A stretch of DNA of 64,000 nucleotides, taken from the IMG/VR virus record IMGVR_UViG_3300042402_003577, positions 41,850-105,849 of that record. The stretch is one strand, 5' to 3'. Below are positions 11,182 to 38,660 of the stretch, in pieces. A program made the translations under genes and the position numbers. Under the pieces are notes generated by a model. The model had not been told where the DNA came from. It did not search any database and saw only the letters and a list, made by a program, of their open reading frames with translations. The stretch is from a virus. Position 1 is the stretch's first letter. Each line of letters opens with the position of its first letter.

Positions 11182-12092
11182 TATTTCATTTTAGCTTTTA
11201 AAGCCTCTTCTAGGCTTAAATATAGTGATGAATTTTCTGGTTTTTGTAAGAAATCAATAATATTCATAGTATCTGTTTGAAGTTGCTCTCCATTGAAGAA
11301 TACTTTTATATTTTCTTTTCTTAACACTGCGTATTGGTACATTTTCTCAACATTGATAGTAACTTCCAATTTTGCTTTATTTTTAGAATCTGACAACTCA
11401 ATAAATAAATCTTGAATAGCTGCCAAAGTTTCTTTATTACTATTTTCGGTAATTTTAGAATACAACAAGTCTTCTATAATTACTTCCTTCTCATCTCCTG
11501 TCAATTTAATACCTAGTGCGGTACACATGTCTCTTTTTTGAGATAGGGTGAGTTTATTGTATCTTTCGTGTAATTTACTTGTTTTTTCACGCTTAGATTC
11601 TCTCACAGTAGCGTCTGCTATTTCATCTTCAATGATCCACTCTGCAGCAGGATGTTTAGAAAGAGAAGTCTCTCCTATTACTGTCATTGAATCTGCCGAC
11701 ATAATTGCATAAATCAATTCTTCTGTCGGTTTATTTAGGTCAAGAACTTGAATATCTCTTCCTAATTTAGCCCTGCATTTACTATGAGTAAAGAAAGGGT
11801 CTTTTCTATTAGAAGGATCTGCTGAAGTTATTTTTTGGTTAGTATACTCGTCATTTAATGCAAGTTTTTTTACTAATTCATTTATTTGTTCATCAGTATA
11901 CCTACTATTGGTAGGGCCTAGATGGTATCTGTAAGCATTCTCGTCAAATTGTGGTCTAAATGTGTTAGCATTAGCCAAAAACGCATAGCTTTCAGAAGCT
12001 TGTCTATAAGCAGGGTCAATATTTACTTGCCAATGCTTATTCTTTTTAATGTTTGGGTAAATTTTTACCTTCTTGTTTGTTAGTGTACTCAT
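11181..12092 (-). CDS. Conserved crAss-like protein downstream of MCP
   Basis: 303 aa. Synteny. Confidence 0.55.
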   Translation of the reverse strand: MSTLTNKKVKIYPNIKKNKHWQVNIDPAYRQASESYAFLANANTFRPQFDENAYRYHLGPTNSRYTDEQINELVKKLALNDEYTNQKITSADPSNRKDPFFTHSKCRAKLGRDIQVLDLNKPTEELIYAIMSADSMTVIGETSLSKHPAAEWIIEDEIADATVRESKREKTSKLHERYNKLTLSQKRDMCTALGIKLTGDEKEVIIEDLLYSKITENSNKETLAAIQDLFIELSDSKNKAKLEVTINVEKMYQYAVLRKENIKVFFNGEQLQTDTMNIIDFLQKPENSSLYLSLEEALKAKMK

Positions 12093-15135: not shown

Positions 15136-17646
15136 TTAATCTTTTTTCCCTTTTTGTTTCATCATCTGAATTTCTGTTTCAATTTTTTTATTCTGAAGTT
15201 GTATCTGTGCTATTTTAGCATCATTAAGCTCTACGCTTGACTCATTTTCGTTTTTTTCCATTTGTAATTGAATCAAATCGTTTGTTCCATCTTGGTCAAT
15301 ATCGTTAGCTCTTTGTAATCTCTGAGCATTCAATTCAGCAGACTTTAATGTTACAGCATTTCTATCATCAGCCATTTGTTTTTGAGTCTTCAATTCCTCT
15401 TGTTTAGCCTGAATCTGCATTTGTTGCATTTGCATTTGTTGCTCTTGTTGAGATTTTTGCATTTGCTCTTCTTTAGCTTCTTTTTGCTCTTGAATTCTAG
15501 CAATGATGTTTTTAACCTCTGTAGCATTCTCTGTAGTGAGAATTTCTGTAGCCACTCTTAAATCTCCTCCACTATTTTGGATAATAGGTTGAATTAAGTT
15601 TTTCAATTGACTAATAATCTCTGTATCTCTTAATGTATTAGTAATAAATACTTTATAGTTATAATTTGCAAAATCTGCCACCTCTGTATTCAATGTAGCT
15701 ATACTTAAATCTGAAAGAATATAAGAAGCCTTCAATGGATTTTCCTTATAGATTACTTTACAAATTTCAATATAGTTCTCAACGGTTCTTTCTTTTACAT
15801 AATTATGCATGTAGAACCATTTCTCAGTTTGATTAGAGGATTGTATAATACTTTGTTGGTTATTACCTATAGACTCATACGGAGATTGCTGTCCTAGTCT
15901 ACCAGGGTTATAACTCATAGACTGTGCCATTTTTTTCTCAATATACTCTAATAATTGTATTTTTTGATTTATTTCTTGTGCATGAGATAGGTTGATAGAT
16001 TTCCAATAGTTAGGATCTACACCCATATTTCTTAAATCGCCTTCTTTAGAAGCACTAATTAAAGCCACCTTGAATTTCTTAATATAAGTCATCCACTGTG
16101 TAGGAGTCATTTCTTTTGGAATCTGTTCTTGTAATCCTAGCAATACATTACCTATATCGGTCTTCATCAATTCAATAATTTGATTGATAACTACATTATA
16201 CAAGAACTGCCAAGGTTTTCCTAAGTCAGCAATTGCTATAGGAGCTGAGTTTCTTGCCGAATAAACAGAGCCTGTATAAGGGCCTCTAATTTGAAAAGGG
16301 TTGTCAACGTCTCTATATTGATTAGGAATAGGTTCAACTTTTATATAAATCTTTGGATTGGTGAATATTTTATATCCATGCCAGAATTCAGGTATCCATA
16401 AAATTTCTTGCTTAACATCTGTTTCTTTGTTAAAAACATAAGTTTCATCCGCAATAGTTTTTTCTAGGGTGCCATTTTCATTTAACCTAAAGATATATTT
16501 AATTTTTTTCAAAGACTTCCAAACAACATGCGTTACTCTTAGTCTTCTAATTTTAAAATTATCCGTGTAATTATCTTCCCAAGGATCTACCCAGCTAGGA
16601 GTAGCTTCGGAATCTGTAGGATTCATAATAGCGTTAGGAATAATTTCCCACACCTTAGAATCTGAAGGAGAGTTTAATGTAGACTCATATTTGTCAAAAA
16701 CTTCTCTCTCTTCTTCGGTAATTATATTACCAAATTTTTGATATATCTCGTAAATAGATAGATACTCGTCATAAGTACACCAGTCTGCTTCATCCAAGAA
16801 GTCAACATCTTTTGATTTAGCATAGTTGAAATACAAAGGATTACAAGCTCTGATAGTAGGTCTACCATTTAACTCTCCTGTCCAATATACTTCTTCTCCT
16901 GTAATAATTACATCTTTCCAGCCTTTATCAAAAACTAATTTAATTCTGTCTGTACGAATATGATATTGTAGTAACTCATCGGTAAGCTTTTCTTCAGGAA
17001 GTTTAAATCCTTTAGCCATGTAAGTTTCTACCTCCACTGGTGTCATTTTATTAATGGTTTCCTCGAGCTGTGCATCTAGATTGGCAGTAATTTCTTGTAG
17101 CTTTTCTAAATACTGAGGGTCCATTGACGGGTCCATCTGGGCTTTTATTTCTTCCAATCTTTTTTGATTGGCTGCTTTTGCTTTTAAAAGTAATTCTTGT
17201 CTTACAATCTTTGAAGTATTCTCAATTAAAAGCTCTCTACGCTTTCTTTGTCTAACTGACTCACTTGTAGAGTTTGTACTAACCACTCTAATATTAAAAG
17301 GTCTTTTGATTTCCTCTCCTTCTAGATCGTGTAATACGTTTTGTAATATAGGGAAATGTATAAAATCACTTTGGTTAATCTCAATTTCTGGAATATCCAT
17401 TCCTAATTCATTCTCAATTATATTCCCTGTATTTATATAACTAGTAAAATCCATTCTACCGTTATATAGTTCGTAGTTTATCTTGAATTTTTCTTTTCTC
17501 TCGTTATAATAGTTGTATTGATTGCATAGGTAATCCATTCTCTGCCTTGCCCAGGCATAGTTATCGGCTATTTTTTTCTTATAACTTAGCCTATCACTTC
17601 CAGGCATGTTTAAGAATTGTGCGGTTAAACTATCGTTTATTACCAT
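15136..17646 (-). CDS. Portal protein
   Basis: 836 aa next to TerL, with NYELYNG, LEGEEIKRPF, RLGQ and a Q-rich coiled-coil C-terminus. Confidence 0.85.
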   Translation of the reverse strand: MVINDSLTAQFLNMPGSDRLSYKKKIADNYAWARQRMDYLCNQYNYYNERKEKFKINYELYNGRMDFTSYINTGNIIENELGMDIPEIEINQSDFIHFPILQNVLHDLEGEEIKRPFNIRVVSTNSTSESVRQRKRRELLIENTSKIVRQELLLKAKAANQKRLEEIKAQMDPSMDPQYLEKLQEITANLDAQLEETINKMTPVEVETYMAKGFKLPEEKLTDELLQYHIRTDRIKLVFDKGWKDVIITGEEVYWTGELNGRPTIRACNPLYFNYAKSKDVDFLDEADWCTYDEYLSIYEIYQKFGNIITEEEREVFDKYESTLNSPSDSKVWEIIPNAIMNPTDSEATPSWVDPWEDNYTDNFKIRRLRVTHVVWKSLKKIKYIFRLNENGTLEKTIADETYVFNKETDVKQEILWIPEFWHGYKIFTNPKIYIKVEPIPNQYRDVDNPFQIRGPYTGSVYSARNSAPIAIADLGKPWQFLYNVVINQIIELMKTDIGNVLLGLQEQIPKEMTPTQWMTYIKKFKVALISASKEGDLRNMGVDPNYWKSINLSHAQEINQKIQLLEYIEKKMAQSMSYNPGRLGQQSPYESIGNNQQSIIQSSNQTEKWFYMHNYVKERTVENYIEICKVIYKENPLKASYILSDLSIATLNTEVADFANYNYKVFITNTLRDTEIISQLKNLIQPIIQNSGGDLRVATEILTTENATEVKNIIARIQEQKEAKEEQMQKSQQEQQMQMQQMQIQAKQEELKTQKQMADDRNAVTLKSAELNAQRLQRANDIDQDGTNDLIQLQMEKNENESSVELNDAKIAQIQLQNKKIETEIQMMKQKGKKD

Positions 17647-29323: not shown

Positions 29324-30228
29324 TTTCACCCTCTCGGAACCCTTGATTTTCCTAGGCACTTTTTTTAACGCTTCTTTAATTATTTATGTGCATGTTTTAT
29401 CATCAACCAAACTCCCAAAAATCACCCCAATATTTTTTATTTTTTTCCACCCCTACCCCCCTAAAATTTTTTAGCCCCTACCCAAAAATCATCCCCCCCT
29501 AGTAGGCCAGAAAAATAACCCCCCCCTGTCTGAGGCGGAAAAATTGTATGAGGCTGAGAAATCGTGTGAAACTGAAAAGTGGGGTGTACTACATACTTAG
29601 CCCACCCACATAACCCAATTTTGAAATTCCCCCTCCTAAAAAACCAAAACTAGATTTGCCCATTAGCTAATATGAATTCTAGGGGAACTATCTCTAGGCT
29701 CGGGGCTATGGGCTAGGGGAACTAGTCTGTGGCTAGGTCTGTGGTCTGCTGGTCTGTGTGCTAGTCTCTCGGGCTAGGTCTCTAGGGTTGTCTGTCTGTC
29801 TTCTCTATCTATATATAAGTACTGCAATACATATAAGGGGGCTATCGGGTAGGGTAGGGGGTAGGGTCTGTACTTATAATGAATACATATATAAGGGCAA
29901 ATAGGTAGGGGGCGGGTAGGTCGGCACACATACATAGATAAACATAGGGCGGATCGGGTAGCCAATAGCGGGAGGGGCTGGACAAAGTAGGCAAGCGGGT
30001 AACTATCGGGCGGAAAGTGCGGGTAAAATATCTAAGGGCGGAAAGTTTGACCTCCATATTTGCCCCCTAAGCGATTATTTTCTGGTGGGTAAGGGTAAGT
30101 GTTGGATAGTAGGGGCTTCCTCGCCTATCCACCCATTTAAGCCTCCATACATATCCGCACTCTGATACCTTATTTATAGCAAAATATACTTCGGGGAAAC
30201 ATTAGAAGCCTCCAAAAATAAATTCATT

Positions 30229-30296
30229 TTGCAACAAAATTTAATTTCTTTGCAACAAAATTTATAACACATGGGTAGGGGGGTGCCGTATCTTTG
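30229..30296 (+). promoter_or_regulatory. Early promoter with two TTGCAACAAAA boxes and a TATCTTTG -7 element
   Basis: Box cores at 30231 and 30252, -7 element at 30289. Confidence 0.7.
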
Positions 30297-30364
30297 TTGT
30301 ATAATTAGTAGCGAAGCTATTAAATATAATACACTAAAAATTAACAACTATTAACAATTAAAAA

Positions 30365-30691
30365 ATGACAAAGACACAAAAATTTCAAATGCTAAAAAGC
30401 GGACAAATTCAAGCTACAAACTCTCATTTGCAGACTGTATACAATTTACTACTTCAAGATTCTGAAACGCTAAGGGACCTAAAAGCGGAACTAAGCGAGG
30501 CAAAGTATAAGAACCTTTGCTATCAAGAACAAATTGATAGAGGTAGTAGAGACCTATGGTATTTAGGGACAAGGGTACAAAATAGCCCTAAAGCCGTATA
30601 TTACACTTCATTGTGGCTGGAGGCTTGCGATACTATAGCCAACGAACTAGGTTACACTTTTGACAGACACTTTTTAATTTCATCAAACTAA
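30365..30691 (+). CDS. Early hypothetical protein
   Basis: First ORF after the promoter, with an A-rich leader. Confidence 0.6.
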   Translation: MTKTQKFQMLKSGQIQATNSHLQTVYNLLLQDSETLRDLKAELSEAKYKNLCYQEQIDRGSRDLWYLGTRVQNSPKAVYYTSLWLEACDTIANELGYTFDRHFLISSN

Positions 30692-30704
30692 AAACATAAA
30701 AAAA

Positions 30705-30896
30705 ATGATAAAACATATAAAAACATACGCACCAATATATATAATCATTCTAGTAAGTCTATTTGTAGGCGCGTTTATAGAACAAGAAATAGTTAGATAT
30801 AGACTAGATAAGTATATCAAAGAAAACAATATCAAGCTAGACAAAGACTTGATAATGCACGGCAAAACATTTCACTACAGCGATTATTCACACTAA
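30705..30896 (+). CDS. Small membrane protein
   Basis: One TM segment and the repeated leader. Confidence 0.55.
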   Translation: MIKHIKTYAPIYIIILVSLFVGAFIEQEIVRYRLDKYIKENNIKLDKDLIMHGKTFHYSDYSH

Positions 30897-30929
30897 AAAA
30901 AATTAACTAACAAATAAAAATTTAAAAAA

Positions 30930-31145
30930 ATGAGCAAATATTACGAAATAGAAGGCTATTGGAAAGATGACAAAGTAGAATTTTCGGGAATAGTCAAGGA
31001 ATACGATGACTACCTTGAAGAGGAGGATGACGATATTTTCTACTATGGTATGGGAGAATCAGACCTAAAAGACGCTATAAATTCGGGAGACGATACTTGT
31101 CTAGACTTTGTAGTCACAAACTATAAAGAAACTATCTATCCATAA
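30930..31145 (+). CDS. Acidic early protein
   Basis: 71 aa, strongly D/E-rich. Confidence 0.6.
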   Translation: MSKYYEIEGYWKDDKVEFSGIVKEYDDYLEEEDDDIFYYGMGESDLKDAINSGDDTCLDFVVTNYKETIYP

Positions 31146-31178
31146 AAAAAATTAACTAACCAATTAAAATCATAAAAA

Positions 31179-31346
31179 ATGAACGCACAAAGAAACACAC
31201 AAAAAACGCACGTTGCAAAATTACCTCAAAATGTAGGCTATTCAATCAAAGAGGGCTACACTATGGAGAAGTCAGAATACCACAAACTTCTAGAGGCACA
31301 AGGTAAAAAGATTGAATATACGCCTTTCGGTATTATCATTCACTAG
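31179..31346 (+). CDS. 55-aa early protein, homologous to the N-domain of 36878..37456
   Basis: Read by hand: LPQNVGYSIKEGYTMEKSEYHKLLE..GIIIH. Confidence 0.7.
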   Translation: MNAQRNTQKTHVAKLPQNVGYSIKEGYTMEKSEYHKLLEAQGKKIEYTPFGIIIH

Positions 31347-31347
31347 A

Positions 31348-31399
31348 GGTTAACTGAAGAGACTTAAATAGTCGAAACGTACTTCGGTACGTCTTAACC
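31348..31399 (+). ncRNA. Type I hammerhead ribozyme
   Basis: GGTTAA-CTGAAGA-GACT(TAAAT)AGTC-GAA-ACGTAC(TTCG)GTACGT-C-TTAACC. All three stems and the core are intact. Confidence 0.92.
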
Positions 31400-31417
31400 A
31401 AAAAAAATTCATAAAAA

Positions 31418-31705
31418 ATGAGACAAGTAACAAAAGAAAGTATCAACGCATTCAATAACAATTCACAAGGATCATTCGGGGGTAACACTAGAATAGTGGT
31501 AGACAATGAGGCTACAAAATTATACCTATTTGATAATCTAATTGCGGTAAAAGAAAATAACGTACTAAGAATATCAAACGCGGGGTGGGAAAGCAATACC
31601 ACAAAGGAAAGGCTTAACGCACTATCGGGGGTAAACATTGTACAAAAAAAAGGAACGTGGTATTTGAACGGCAATGAGTGGAGCGGTGATTGGATAGCAA
31701 TTTAA
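31418..31705 (+). CDS. Conserved phage early protein
   Basis: L..N.IA...GW.S.TTKERLNAL. Confidence 0.65.
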   Translation: MRQVTKESINAFNNNSQGSFGGNTRIVVDNEATKLYLFDNLIAVKENNVLRISNAGWESNTTKERLNALSGVNIVQKKGTWYLNGNEWSGDWIAI

Positions 31706-31754
31706 GAAAAAAACTAAATATTTAAAAAAATAACAATTAAAAAAATCATAAAAA

Positions 31755-32087
31755 ATGAAAAAAATTAACTTTGCAGAAATTACATTAAGACTAGAACTTT
31801 CGTCAAGAGGCGGAGGAGTAGAAATTGACCTCACTACCTTAGGTTTCAAGGGCGAAAAAATGTCCGCCTATCAAAACTATCTAGGCGGGGGTATGCTGGG
31901 GGCTATAAGCGAGAATAACACAATAAACGCCTATGGAAAGGAGATTACCTCAAAAAAGCAATTAAAACTAGAAAAAATTGCAGAAGAATTGAAACGCTAT
32001 TTTCACAACTTAACGAACCCCGAAGAGGAGGAGTGGGAAAGTGTTTCATACGAACAAAACCAAAACTTACCAACAAGCGCATACTAA
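31755..32087 (+). CDS. Hypothetical protein
   Basis: 110 aa with the repeated leader. Confidence 0.6.
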   Translation: MKKINFAEITLRLELSSRGGGVEIDLTTLGFKGEKMSAYQNYLGGGMLGAISENNTINAYGKEITSKKQLKLEKIAEELKRYFHNLTNPEEEEWESVSYEQNQNLPTSAY

Positions 32088-32106
32088 CCAATTAAAATTT
32101 AAAAAA

Positions 32107-32382
32107 ATGAGTAAATCATCATTATACACTATCAAAGTAGTAGAAGAAACCATAAACAACTACCATAAAAGGGGTGGAGAAGTTATAGAAGTAGTAGAAG
32201 GTTCCTTAGGCTATGGAACTACAATATGTTTCGGAGAGGGGCTAAAAACCACTATCATCCAGGAAGTTTATTTGAATTCCTGGAGTAGTGGGCACACTAT
32301 TGTAAGCTACAATAAGTGCCCAAAAAAATACGAACTTATGCTAAAAAATTGGGAAGCTAGACAAGAGTTAGAAGAAAATTAA
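32107..32382 (+). CDS. Hypothetical protein
   Basis: ATG at 32107 after the leader motif. EG.LGYG..E.YLN.WSS. Confidence 0.6.
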   Translation: MSKSSLYTIKVVEETINNYHKRGGEVIEVVEGSLGYGTTICFGEGLKTTIIQEVYLNSWSSGHTIVSYNKCPKKYELMLKNWEARQELEEN

Positions 32383-32405
32383 ATAACCACTAAAAACATA
32401 AAAAA

Positions 32406-32633
32406 ATGAGTAAAGTATCAAGTATCGACAAACTAAGAAATATGGTAGCGTGGGCAAACTACCAGCACGAGGGCTTCAATCAATTATTCAAAAGTATAAG
32501 CCAACTAGAAAAAGCCTATGACTTCTGCCAAAAGAACGGCTATGAATTCCTTGACTTTGAATACATGGAGGGTATGGAGGCAGAGGATGAAGAAAAATGT
32601 ATTGACTTTCTGAAAGCAATAAAAATAATTTAA
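32406..32633 (+). CDS. Hypothetical protein
   Basis: 75 aa with the leader motif. Confidence 0.55.
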   Translation: MSKVSSIDKLRNMVAWANYQHEGFNQLFKSISQLEKAYDFCQKNGYEFLDFEYMEGMEAEDEEKCIDFLKAIKII

Positions 32634-32703
32634 TTAACCAACAATTAAGAAAAAAAACTATATCTTTGTATAAAATTTAATTAACCAATAAAATTCATAA
32701 AAA

Positions 32704-32967
32704 ATGACAAAAGAACAATTAAAAGCGGGAGACAAAGTAAAGGCAATAAACCCATGCCTTATGAGAACTACTAAGGTAGAAACCCTAACTATCGGAAAGG
32801 AATATGAGATATTAGCTATTGAACTAGATGAGGACAAGGACTACATATCAAGAATACTTAATGAAGAATATGAGGAAGAATATAGTATCTTGATAATAGA
32901 TGACCAAGGAGAAGAGCACCTCTTCCCGATTGAAGACTTAGAAACCTATTTTGACGTAGAAATTTAA
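32704..32967 (+). CDS. Hypothetical acidic protein
   Basis: 87 aa. TATCTTTG at 32661-32668. Confidence 0.6.
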   Translation: MTKEQLKAGDKVKAINPCLMRTTKVETLTIGKEYEILAIELDEDKDYISRILNEEYEEEYSILIIDDQGEEHLFPIEDLETYFDVEI

Positions 32968-32994
32968 CTTATAAACCAATAAAATTCATAAAAA

Positions 32995-33180
32995 ATGAAA
33001 AACGTAAAAGAATTAAACAAAAACGAACTAGATCAATTAAAGTGGAACTATTTTTATGACGAGGAAGTAGTCCAAAACAAGTATGACTATCCGCATGAAA
33101 TATCTGATGAGGTTATCTTTGCTCATTACGAGCATGTAAGTTTTGTAGAGGAGGACTTTTTTTGCAATGTTAACCAATAA
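32995..33180 (+). CDS. Hypothetical protein
   Basis: 61 aa. V.EL...EL.QLK...FVEEDFFC. Confidence 0.6.
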   Translation: MKNVKELNKNELDQLKWNYFYDEEVVQNKYDYPHEISDEVIFAHYEHVSFVEEDFFCNVNQ

Positions 33181-33992: not shown

Positions 33993-34133
33993 ATGATAGA
34001 AGCACTAAAAGAAACATTCGGGGAAGCACTACCCTTTGTATCAATTATATTATTGGTATTTATATGGGTGGCAGGGTGCCTACTAATTGAAGACAAAATT
34101 TCAAACCTTTTTAAAAATTGCAACAAAACTTAA
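33993..34133 (+). CDS. 46-aa membrane peptide
   Basis: Read by hand. One TM segment and the leader motif. Confidence 0.5.
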   Translation: MIEALKETFGEALPFVSIILLVFIWVAGCLLIEDKISNLFKNCNKT

Positions 34134-34184
34134 TAAAATTGCAACAAAATTGATAACTTTGGGGTACAACCTACCCTATCTTTG
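34118..34184 (+). promoter_or_regulatory. Promoter with two TTGCAACAAAA boxes and TATCTTTG
   Basis: Box cores at 34120 and 34141, -7 element at 34177. Confidence 0.7.
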
Positions 34185-38592: not shown

Positions 38593-38660
38593 TTTCAACA
38601 AAAATTAAAGTAATTGCAACAAAATTGATACCTGATACCTTTAAACTAGTACTATCTTTG
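38593..38660 (+). promoter_or_regulatory. Promoter with two (T/G)CAACAAAA boxes and TATCTTTG
   Basis: Box cores at 38595 and 38616, -7 element at 38653. Confidence 0.7.

Follow-up and report, generated by a model that had tools for sequence, protein, structure and literature searches.

An intact type I hammerhead ribozyme between two small genes of a lake phage, with a predicted cut on the first base of a repeated leader

The stretch of DNA analysed here (the window) is 64,000 nucleotides long and covers the right-hand part (64 kb) of a virus record of 105,849 bp, which CheckV rates as complete. The GC content is about 31%. PHROG families are matched by the portal protein, by the large terminase and by the major head protein, the last of which shares 32% identity with its counterpart in Flavobacterium phage FpV4. 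Further matches of the head protein fall in Bacteroides (host Bacteroides intestinalis), Cellulophaga, IAS and Kehishuvirus phage records; several of the phages matched in this way are crAss-like. The phage, which is uncultured, is itself probably crAss-like and probably infects Bacteroidota. Established knowledge points to the same host, since the small rightward genes have no Shine-Dalgarno sequence and are accompanied by promoter-like sites of the TAnnTTTG type. TAnnTTTG is the -7 element of Bacteroidota. All 24 sequencing runs listed as containing this phage are lake or freshwater DNA metagenomes, with no RNA run among them.

Small genes form a rightward block here, and the ribozyme sits in the 71-nt spacer that separates the fourth of them from the fifth; a promoter-like site at 30289 lies about 1.05 kb upstream of it. 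Neighbouring spacers that carry no promoter-like site measure 13-49 nt, as against 71 nt at the ribozyme. The features of the locus, in window coordinates, are the following.

30229-30296, plus strand: promoter-like region, two copies of TTGCAACAAAATT and then TATCTTTG, the latter fitting TAnnTTTG
31179-31346, plus strand: upstream 55-aa ORF, from the ORF list, with homologues 87-89% identical in the related contigs L203 and L204
31285-31293, plus strand: upstream coding segment predicted to pair with 31343-31351 in the minimum free energy (MFE) fold of 31250-31500
31344-31346, plus strand: stop codon TAG of the 55-aa ORF, read from the sequence
31347, plus strand: unpaired A directly 5' of stem I, an A conserved at the same place across the subclass described below
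31348-31353, plus strand: 5' strand of stem I, GGTTAA, unchanged in the hammerheads of L203, L204, L205 and L046
31354-31360, plus strand: core strand C3-A9, CTGAAGA, which fits the consensus CUGANGA
31361-31373, plus strand: stem II, GACT (31361-31364) with AGTC (31370-31373), closed by the 5-nt loop TAAAT and including the pair G10.1-C11.1
31374-31376, plus strand: core G12 A13 A14 (GAA), invariant in 26 of the 26 model sequences
31377-31392, plus strand: stem III, ACGTAC (31377-31382) with GTACGT (31387-31392), closed by a TTCG loop and including the pair A15.1-U16.1
31393/31394, plus strand: predicted scissile bond, after C17, from the hammerhead consensus (GUC triplet at 31391-31393)
31394-31417, plus strand: 24-nt A-rich leader of the next gene, which opens with the 3' strand of stem I, TTAACC (31394-31399)
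31418-31705, plus strand: downstream 95-aa gene, Kyanoviridae Gp96-like (PF23790; Pfam E 3.8e-13)
34118-34184 and 38614-38660, plus strand: the same promoter-like module again, recognised by the recurrence of its arrangement

Every conserved position of the hammerhead core is present, namely C3, U4, G5, A6, N7, G8 and A9, then G12, A13 and A14. Position H17 is C31393 and not G, A31377 pairs with T31392, and G31361 pairs with C31373. The three-way junction is both the MFE and the centroid fold of the isolated 52 nt (31348-31399). In this fold stem I is open and stems II and III are closed by loops, and the motif is of type I because stem I is the open stem. Stem I of the window ribozyme has neither bulge nor loop; in natural hammerheads, stem I bulges or loops speed cleavage. 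The bases and coordinates that the original prediction had listed for 31348-31399 were all found on the plus strand, and its placing of the cut 24 nt before ATG 31418 agrees with the sequence. Its main claim, that of an intact type I hammerhead, also stood up: the core, the fold, the compensatory changes in relatives and a 72-bit match to a covariance model, the last two described below, all agree.

The same prediction had named the Rfam hammerhead models as a means of checking the motif, and here the outcome was mixed. RF00163 (Hammerhead_1) was indeed the top family, with an E-value of 2.8e-5 in a local search and of 2.8e-6 genome-wide, but its score of 28.5 bits lies under the 34-bit cut-off, and a search of the window against Rfam at gathering thresholds returned no match. 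The score is low because stem III is very short in the Rfam consensus, and the 6-bp stem III with its tetraloop is treated as an insertion. We also built a covariance model, called R1, on 26 equally long type I hammerheads of other phages, the window being excluded. R1 scored the window ribozyme at 72.2 bits (E 5e-18), as the sole significant match in the window and the only one in the whole 105.8-kb genome. In the R1 alignment both sides have changed in 14 of 16 pairs, a figure in which only the diversity of pair types is informative, the set having been chosen for pairing. A second R1 match, at 11839-11904 on the minus strand (11.5 bits, E 1.2), was rejected as chance; it lies inside a 303-aa ORF and has no GAAA strand and no stems II and III.

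Significance was also estimated on 300 dinucleotide-preserving shuffles of the window, both strands of which were scanned with a strict detector (stems of at least 6, 4 and 5 bp). No motif of equal quality turned up in these shuffles, and loose motifs numbered five. The simple core pattern alone was uninformative, with six matches versus 14 expected. As for other hammerheads, no type II or type III form was found in the 105.8-kb genome with RF02276 and RF00008, and no further copy of any kind was found there with R1, RF00163, RF02276 and RF00008, the ribozyme being present as a single copy. The RAGATH-1 hammerhead model (RF03152) reached 20.5 bits (E 0.29), below its threshold of 56.3 bits, and blastn of 30000-33000 against cultured phage records gave no match.

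Three viral contigs, L203, L204 and L205, are collinear relatives of the region. In L203 and L204 a hammerhead whose core and stem I are unchanged stands directly behind the same stop codon; further downstream, L203 encodes a 110-aa ORF 95% identical to that of the window. Stem III reads ACGCC/GGCGT with a TTAG loop in L203, and ACGCT/AGCGT with a GCAA loop in L204. The L205 hammerhead follows a different upstream sequence; its stem III is ACGCC/GGCGT and its stem II GGCT/AGCC. This hammerhead (L205:3024-3079) also has one extra U between A9 and G10.1, an insertion adjacent to the core. In two more distant contigs, L046 and L047, a hammerhead with the same stem I and different stems II and III lies directly before a Gp96-like homologue. 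Compensatory changes are found in stem III of L203, L204 and L205, and stem II shows such changes in L205 and L046. Among the lake-water contigs the lone variant inside the motif is A31358T (run X3), which is N7, the only unconstrained position of the core and one that also varies in a second L203 copy. An invariant core combined with compensating stem changes is the pattern expected if selection acts on a functional ribozyme.

When IMG/VR was scanned with a pattern for the core-stem II-GAAAC strand, at least 120 loci matched. In 100 of those listed we found strict type I hammerheads, at least 192 in all, at least 161 of them unique; most of these unique hammerheads listed immediately follow a stop codon and have the next ATG about 10-30 nt downstream. 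Features were counted on the 74 hammerheads that do not match the search pattern, a set free of ascertainment. Stem I is exactly 6 bp long in 69 of these 74. An A is found just after stem I in 66 of the 74 and just before it in 66 as well, the latter count being partly confounded by stop codons ending in A. Loop II follows the pattern U-N-A-W-U (U1 in 55/57, A3 in 52/57, U5 in 51/57). The window ribozyme has all features of this subclass, that is, the 6-bp stem I, the flanking A on both sides, the 4-bp stem II and the U-N-A-W-U loop. These results establish the motif and its significance, its conservation with compensatory changes and its membership of a widespread phage subclass. Conservation of the flanking A and of loop II hints at a tertiary contact where the 6-bp stem I ends.

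In other viral contigs (L120:1256-2957, L151, L085, L091 and L186) type I hammerheads form arrays of four to six copies, with about one copy for each small gene. Stem I is identical or almost identical among the copies of a contig (GGTTAA in L120, GTTCAA in L151), but stems II and III differ.

On its 3' side the ribozyme merges with a repeated element of the phage. Most small rightward genes between 30340 and 36880 on the plus strand are preceded by a leader of about 25 nt, of the family wTAACmAwTAAAAwTCATAAAAAATG, and none of these leaders contains a Shine-Dalgarno sequence. The 3' 15-mer of the leader, AATTCATAAAAAATG, occurs 11 times with at most two mismatches, versus 2.2 expected. TTAACC, the 3' strand of stem I, makes up the first six bases of the leader, and the predicted cut falls on its first base. 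Thus the earlier claim that stem I runs into a repeated leader was borne out, the leader being real by its count and the overlap amounting to six bases. Most leaders of the genome have no ribozyme. Other phages with a GGTTAA stem were searched for TTAAC-type leaders without a ribozyme, and no clear pattern emerged. As a separate observation, synteny breaks between related phages begin and finish at these leaders.

The promoter-like modules listed above each contain TATCTTTG, preceded at a distance of about 25-45 nt by TTGCAACAAAATT in single or double copy. There are three sites with TTGCAACAAAATT, and TATCTTTG is also found at 32661. A 13-mer of the module is present in five copies versus 0.6 expected. 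Judging from these motifs, the region 30229-30296 probably starts the transcription unit that bears the ribozyme, and the modules probably define three or four early transcription units; "early" is a putative label here, based only on gene order and promoter-like motifs. A scan for sigma-70 promoters and terminators stayed at shuffle level, the sigma-70 model being unsuited to this type of host.

Taking the motif and its setting together, we consider it likely that the element is a functional, cis-cleaving type I hammerhead which cuts the message within the 71-nt spacer and releases the downstream cistron. Self-processing with a 5'-OH downstream RNA would follow from hammerhead chemistry and from the position of the motif, and we infer cleavage in vivo, the fate of both products and the benefit to the phage along these lines. 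The transcribed RNA would fold into the three-way junction and cut itself after C31393. The upstream RNA, with its four small genes, would then carry the stable stem III hairpin and a 2',3'-cyclic phosphate at its 3' end. The downstream RNA would have a 5'-OH, and its first nucleotide would be precisely the one that opens the standard A-rich leader. The two products would separate because stem I has only six pairs, and this would leave the leader unstructured for Shine-Dalgarno-independent initiation. The stability and translation of the downstream cistron would in this way be uncoupled from those of the upstream cistrons.

A further proposal, to which we give some credence but less than even, is that the hammerhead and its fixed leader may serve a hypervariable gene slot as an "expression insulator" placed at its 5' border. 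If true, any small gene landing behind the ribozyme would be given, on release, the unstructured 5'-OH leader common to the other early genes of the phage, and stem I (GGTTAA/TTAACC) would be frozen because the leader begins with the 3' strand of this stem. Each phage of the subclass would likewise possess its own fixed 5' end for processed mRNAs, and bacterial hammerheads would be given a concrete, testable job.

The slot itself is visible in relatives and in the lake populations. The gene behind the ribozyme is the Gp96-like 95-aa gene in the window, an unrelated 79-aa gene in L203 and an unrelated 80-aa gene in L204. In L203 a second hammerhead, matching that of the window except at N7, lies beyond the 79-aa gene, and the two copies bracket this gene. 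One lake-water contig has a joint 31403 -> 31742, in which the ribozyme is kept and the Gp96-like gene is absent. In another lake-water contig ~30884-30913 is joined at 31395 via a shared TTAAC; this ~30913/31395 junction, read from a 30-letter loose end matched by eye, would drop two genes and the ribozyme. The ribozyme appears to border a cassette hot spot and to be dispensable in at least one strain, since the latter contig appears to lack it and the closest Gp96-like homologues have promoter-like sequence where the window has the ribozyme.

Several other observations were made on the same contigs and genes. In a lake-water contig, among the strain contigs from runs X3 and X16, a joint 30934 -> 31161 leaves out a 71-aa gene. 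Short and otherwise unrelated metagenome contigs from these two runs align only to the hammerhead (31346-31402, over 57-60 nt with 5-9 differences), which points to similar ribozymes in other members of the same lake communities. At least 117 stretches homologous to the 95-aa PF23790 product were found, in very diverse viral contigs. The idea that the hammerhead is tied to the Gp96-like gene was rejected, since just two of the 80 homologue loci, the identical L046 and L047, have a hammerhead directly upstream.

A possibility raised by the variable slot is that the ribozyme mainly marks or serves a swappable gene cassette, the hammerhead and leader forming a portable 5' module whose persistence would reflect turnover via recombination at repeated leaders more than a need to process this message. 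We regard this as unlikely. It fits with three related phages having three unrelated genes directly behind the ribozyme within conserved flanks, with the near-identical second copy on the far side of the L203 79-aa gene, with the lake-water joint 31403 -> 31742 and the ribozyme-removing junction at the shared TTAAC, and with the fact that all hammerheads of a contig usually have one stem I sequence. Yet the compensation in stem III and the invariant core argue for selection on the ribozyme fold itself, and recombination at leaders has no need of a ribozyme, as most leaders are without one. Moreover, this explanation is compatible with self-processing and does not exclude it.

Another possibility concerns the timing of the cut. 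In the MFE fold of the 251 nt from 31250 to 31500, the segment 31285-31293 forms a 9-bp competitor helix that sequesters the first 4 nt of stem I, and the upstream strand of this helix lies within translated sequence. Cleavage could then be slow or conditional: the segment would trap stem I by its 5' strand, which only ribosomes at work on the 55-aa ORF would free, and both cutting and downstream gene expression would be coupled to upstream translation. We hold such a control to be quite improbable. As a matter of fact, the competitor belongs to the MFE fold, and the pairing probability of stem I drops from 0.92-0.94 without the upstream RNA to 0.02-0.34 with it (about 0.03 in the 251-nt context). 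However, forcing the hammerhead costs merely 1.7 kcal/mol relative to the MFE of 31250-31500, the long fold has a z-score of -0.55, with no sign of a selected structure, tertiary contacts lie outside the energy model, and the competitor helix has no comparative support.

That the motif is hammerhead-like by chance or through decay and devoid of activity, or is simply a stabilising pair of hairpins, strikes us as highly improbable. The score under the Rfam gathering threshold and the single copy in the genome would agree with it, but the E-value of 5e-18 against the independent model R1, the lack of an equivalent in 300 shuffles, and relatives in which all core bases are kept and the stems change with compensation speak against it. 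Action in trans, whereby the ribozyme would cut other TTAACC-like leaders and turn the early transcript into single-gene messages, was rejected and is given next to no credence: the repeated leader does begin with the very sequence of the stem I 3' strand, but stem III is closed by its own loop so that an external substrate strand cannot enter, sites made of the stem III 3' strand, U-H and the stem I strand are at chance level (39 versus 33.7 expected), the only exact such site is the ribozyme itself, and the other leaders lack the U-H step before TTAAC.

Cis-cleavage between cistrons, our preferred reading, had been likened to the RNase III sites of T7 early RNA. RNase III cuts the T7 early polycistronic RNA between cistrons and leaves a hairpin at the upstream 3' end, with a 5'-phosphate and a 3'-OH. 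The likeness holds for the outcome, in that a polycistronic early message would be cut between cistrons, with an upstream 3' hairpin that is predicted here. It fails for the mechanism: T7 relies on a protein enzyme that gives 5'-phosphate and 3'-OH ends, whereas self-cleavage is predicted for the window, with 5'-OH and 2',3'-cyclic phosphate ends. T7 also has a site at every junction, whereas this phage has one site.

Among Rfam families, the closest comparison is with RF00163, whose consensus is close to the Schistosoma and newt satellite hammerheads. The window ribozyme has the same topology and a core-adjacent 6-bp stem I, and its loop II is similar, reading UAAAU-A in the cmscan alignment versus AAAUA in the consensus. 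Unlike RF00163, it is set in a phage mRNA and not in a satellite repeat, and its stem III is longer.

Hammerheads have been described in phages and prophages, where they are intergenic and often flank single genes; clustered ones cleave in vitro and in E. coli, and processing of polycistronic RNA was proposed as their role (Perreault et al. 2011, PMC3088659). The window element is a new example of this phage ribozyme known since 2011 and not a new kind of element. Like the hammerheads of Perreault et al. 2011, it has the consensus core, is intergenic in a phage polycistronic unit and has inconstant neighbour genes, and the same role, cutting long phage transcripts, is proposed for it. The two copies flanking one small gene in L203 also resemble their Figure 3. 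In contrast with the clustered hammerheads of that study, the window ribozyme is a single copy in 105.8 kb and brackets no gene. It is also of type I: its 6-bp stem I is short and open, and no pseudoknot is predicted. The emphasis of Perreault et al. 2011 is on type II and pseudoknotted forms. It further differs from their cases by a host that is probably of the Bacteroidota and by a predicted cut that coincides with the start of a genome-wide leader.

Type I hammerheads have also been reported in the 5' UTRs of fungal and plant RNA viruses, in which self-cleavage enables translation initiation (Lopez-Galiano et al. 2026, PMC13725137). There, as in the window, a type I hammerhead lies directly upstream of an ORF and cleavage is proposed to make a translatable 5' end. 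Those viruses are, however, eukaryotic RNA viruses with cap-independent translation, and the likeness implies neither homology nor a mechanism shared with bacterial initiation.

A cultured representative of the subclass was found in Flavobacterium phage vB_FspP_elemoA_7-9A (MT497017.1), in which a hammerhead at L206:5995-6056, that is, about 17288-17349 of the record on the minus strand, scores 54.6 bits with R1. As in the window, this ribozyme lies between small rightward genes, behind a stop codon and before an A-rich leader. It differs by its stem I (GGCAAA/TTTGTC), by a longer stem III and by belonging to an unrelated 62-kb podovirus.

The window locus offers a clean test case for the biological role of the many bacterial and phage hammerheads. 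It combines a single ribozyme, a predicted cut on the first base of a shared leader and relatives with compensatory changes; in addition, differing genes are found behind the ribozyme and a population variant apparently lacks it. In vivo tests are within reach, since a cultured Flavobacterium phage carries another ribozyme of this subclass.

There are also consequences for annotation. The Rfam threshold for type I hammerheads misses an abundant phage subclass, and gene callers may put spurious ORFs over hammerheads. In MT497017.1, a 35-aa antisense "hypothetical protein" is annotated at L206:5962-6069, over the hammerhead of vB_FspP_elemoA_7-9A, and this ORF is probably a gene-calling artefact.
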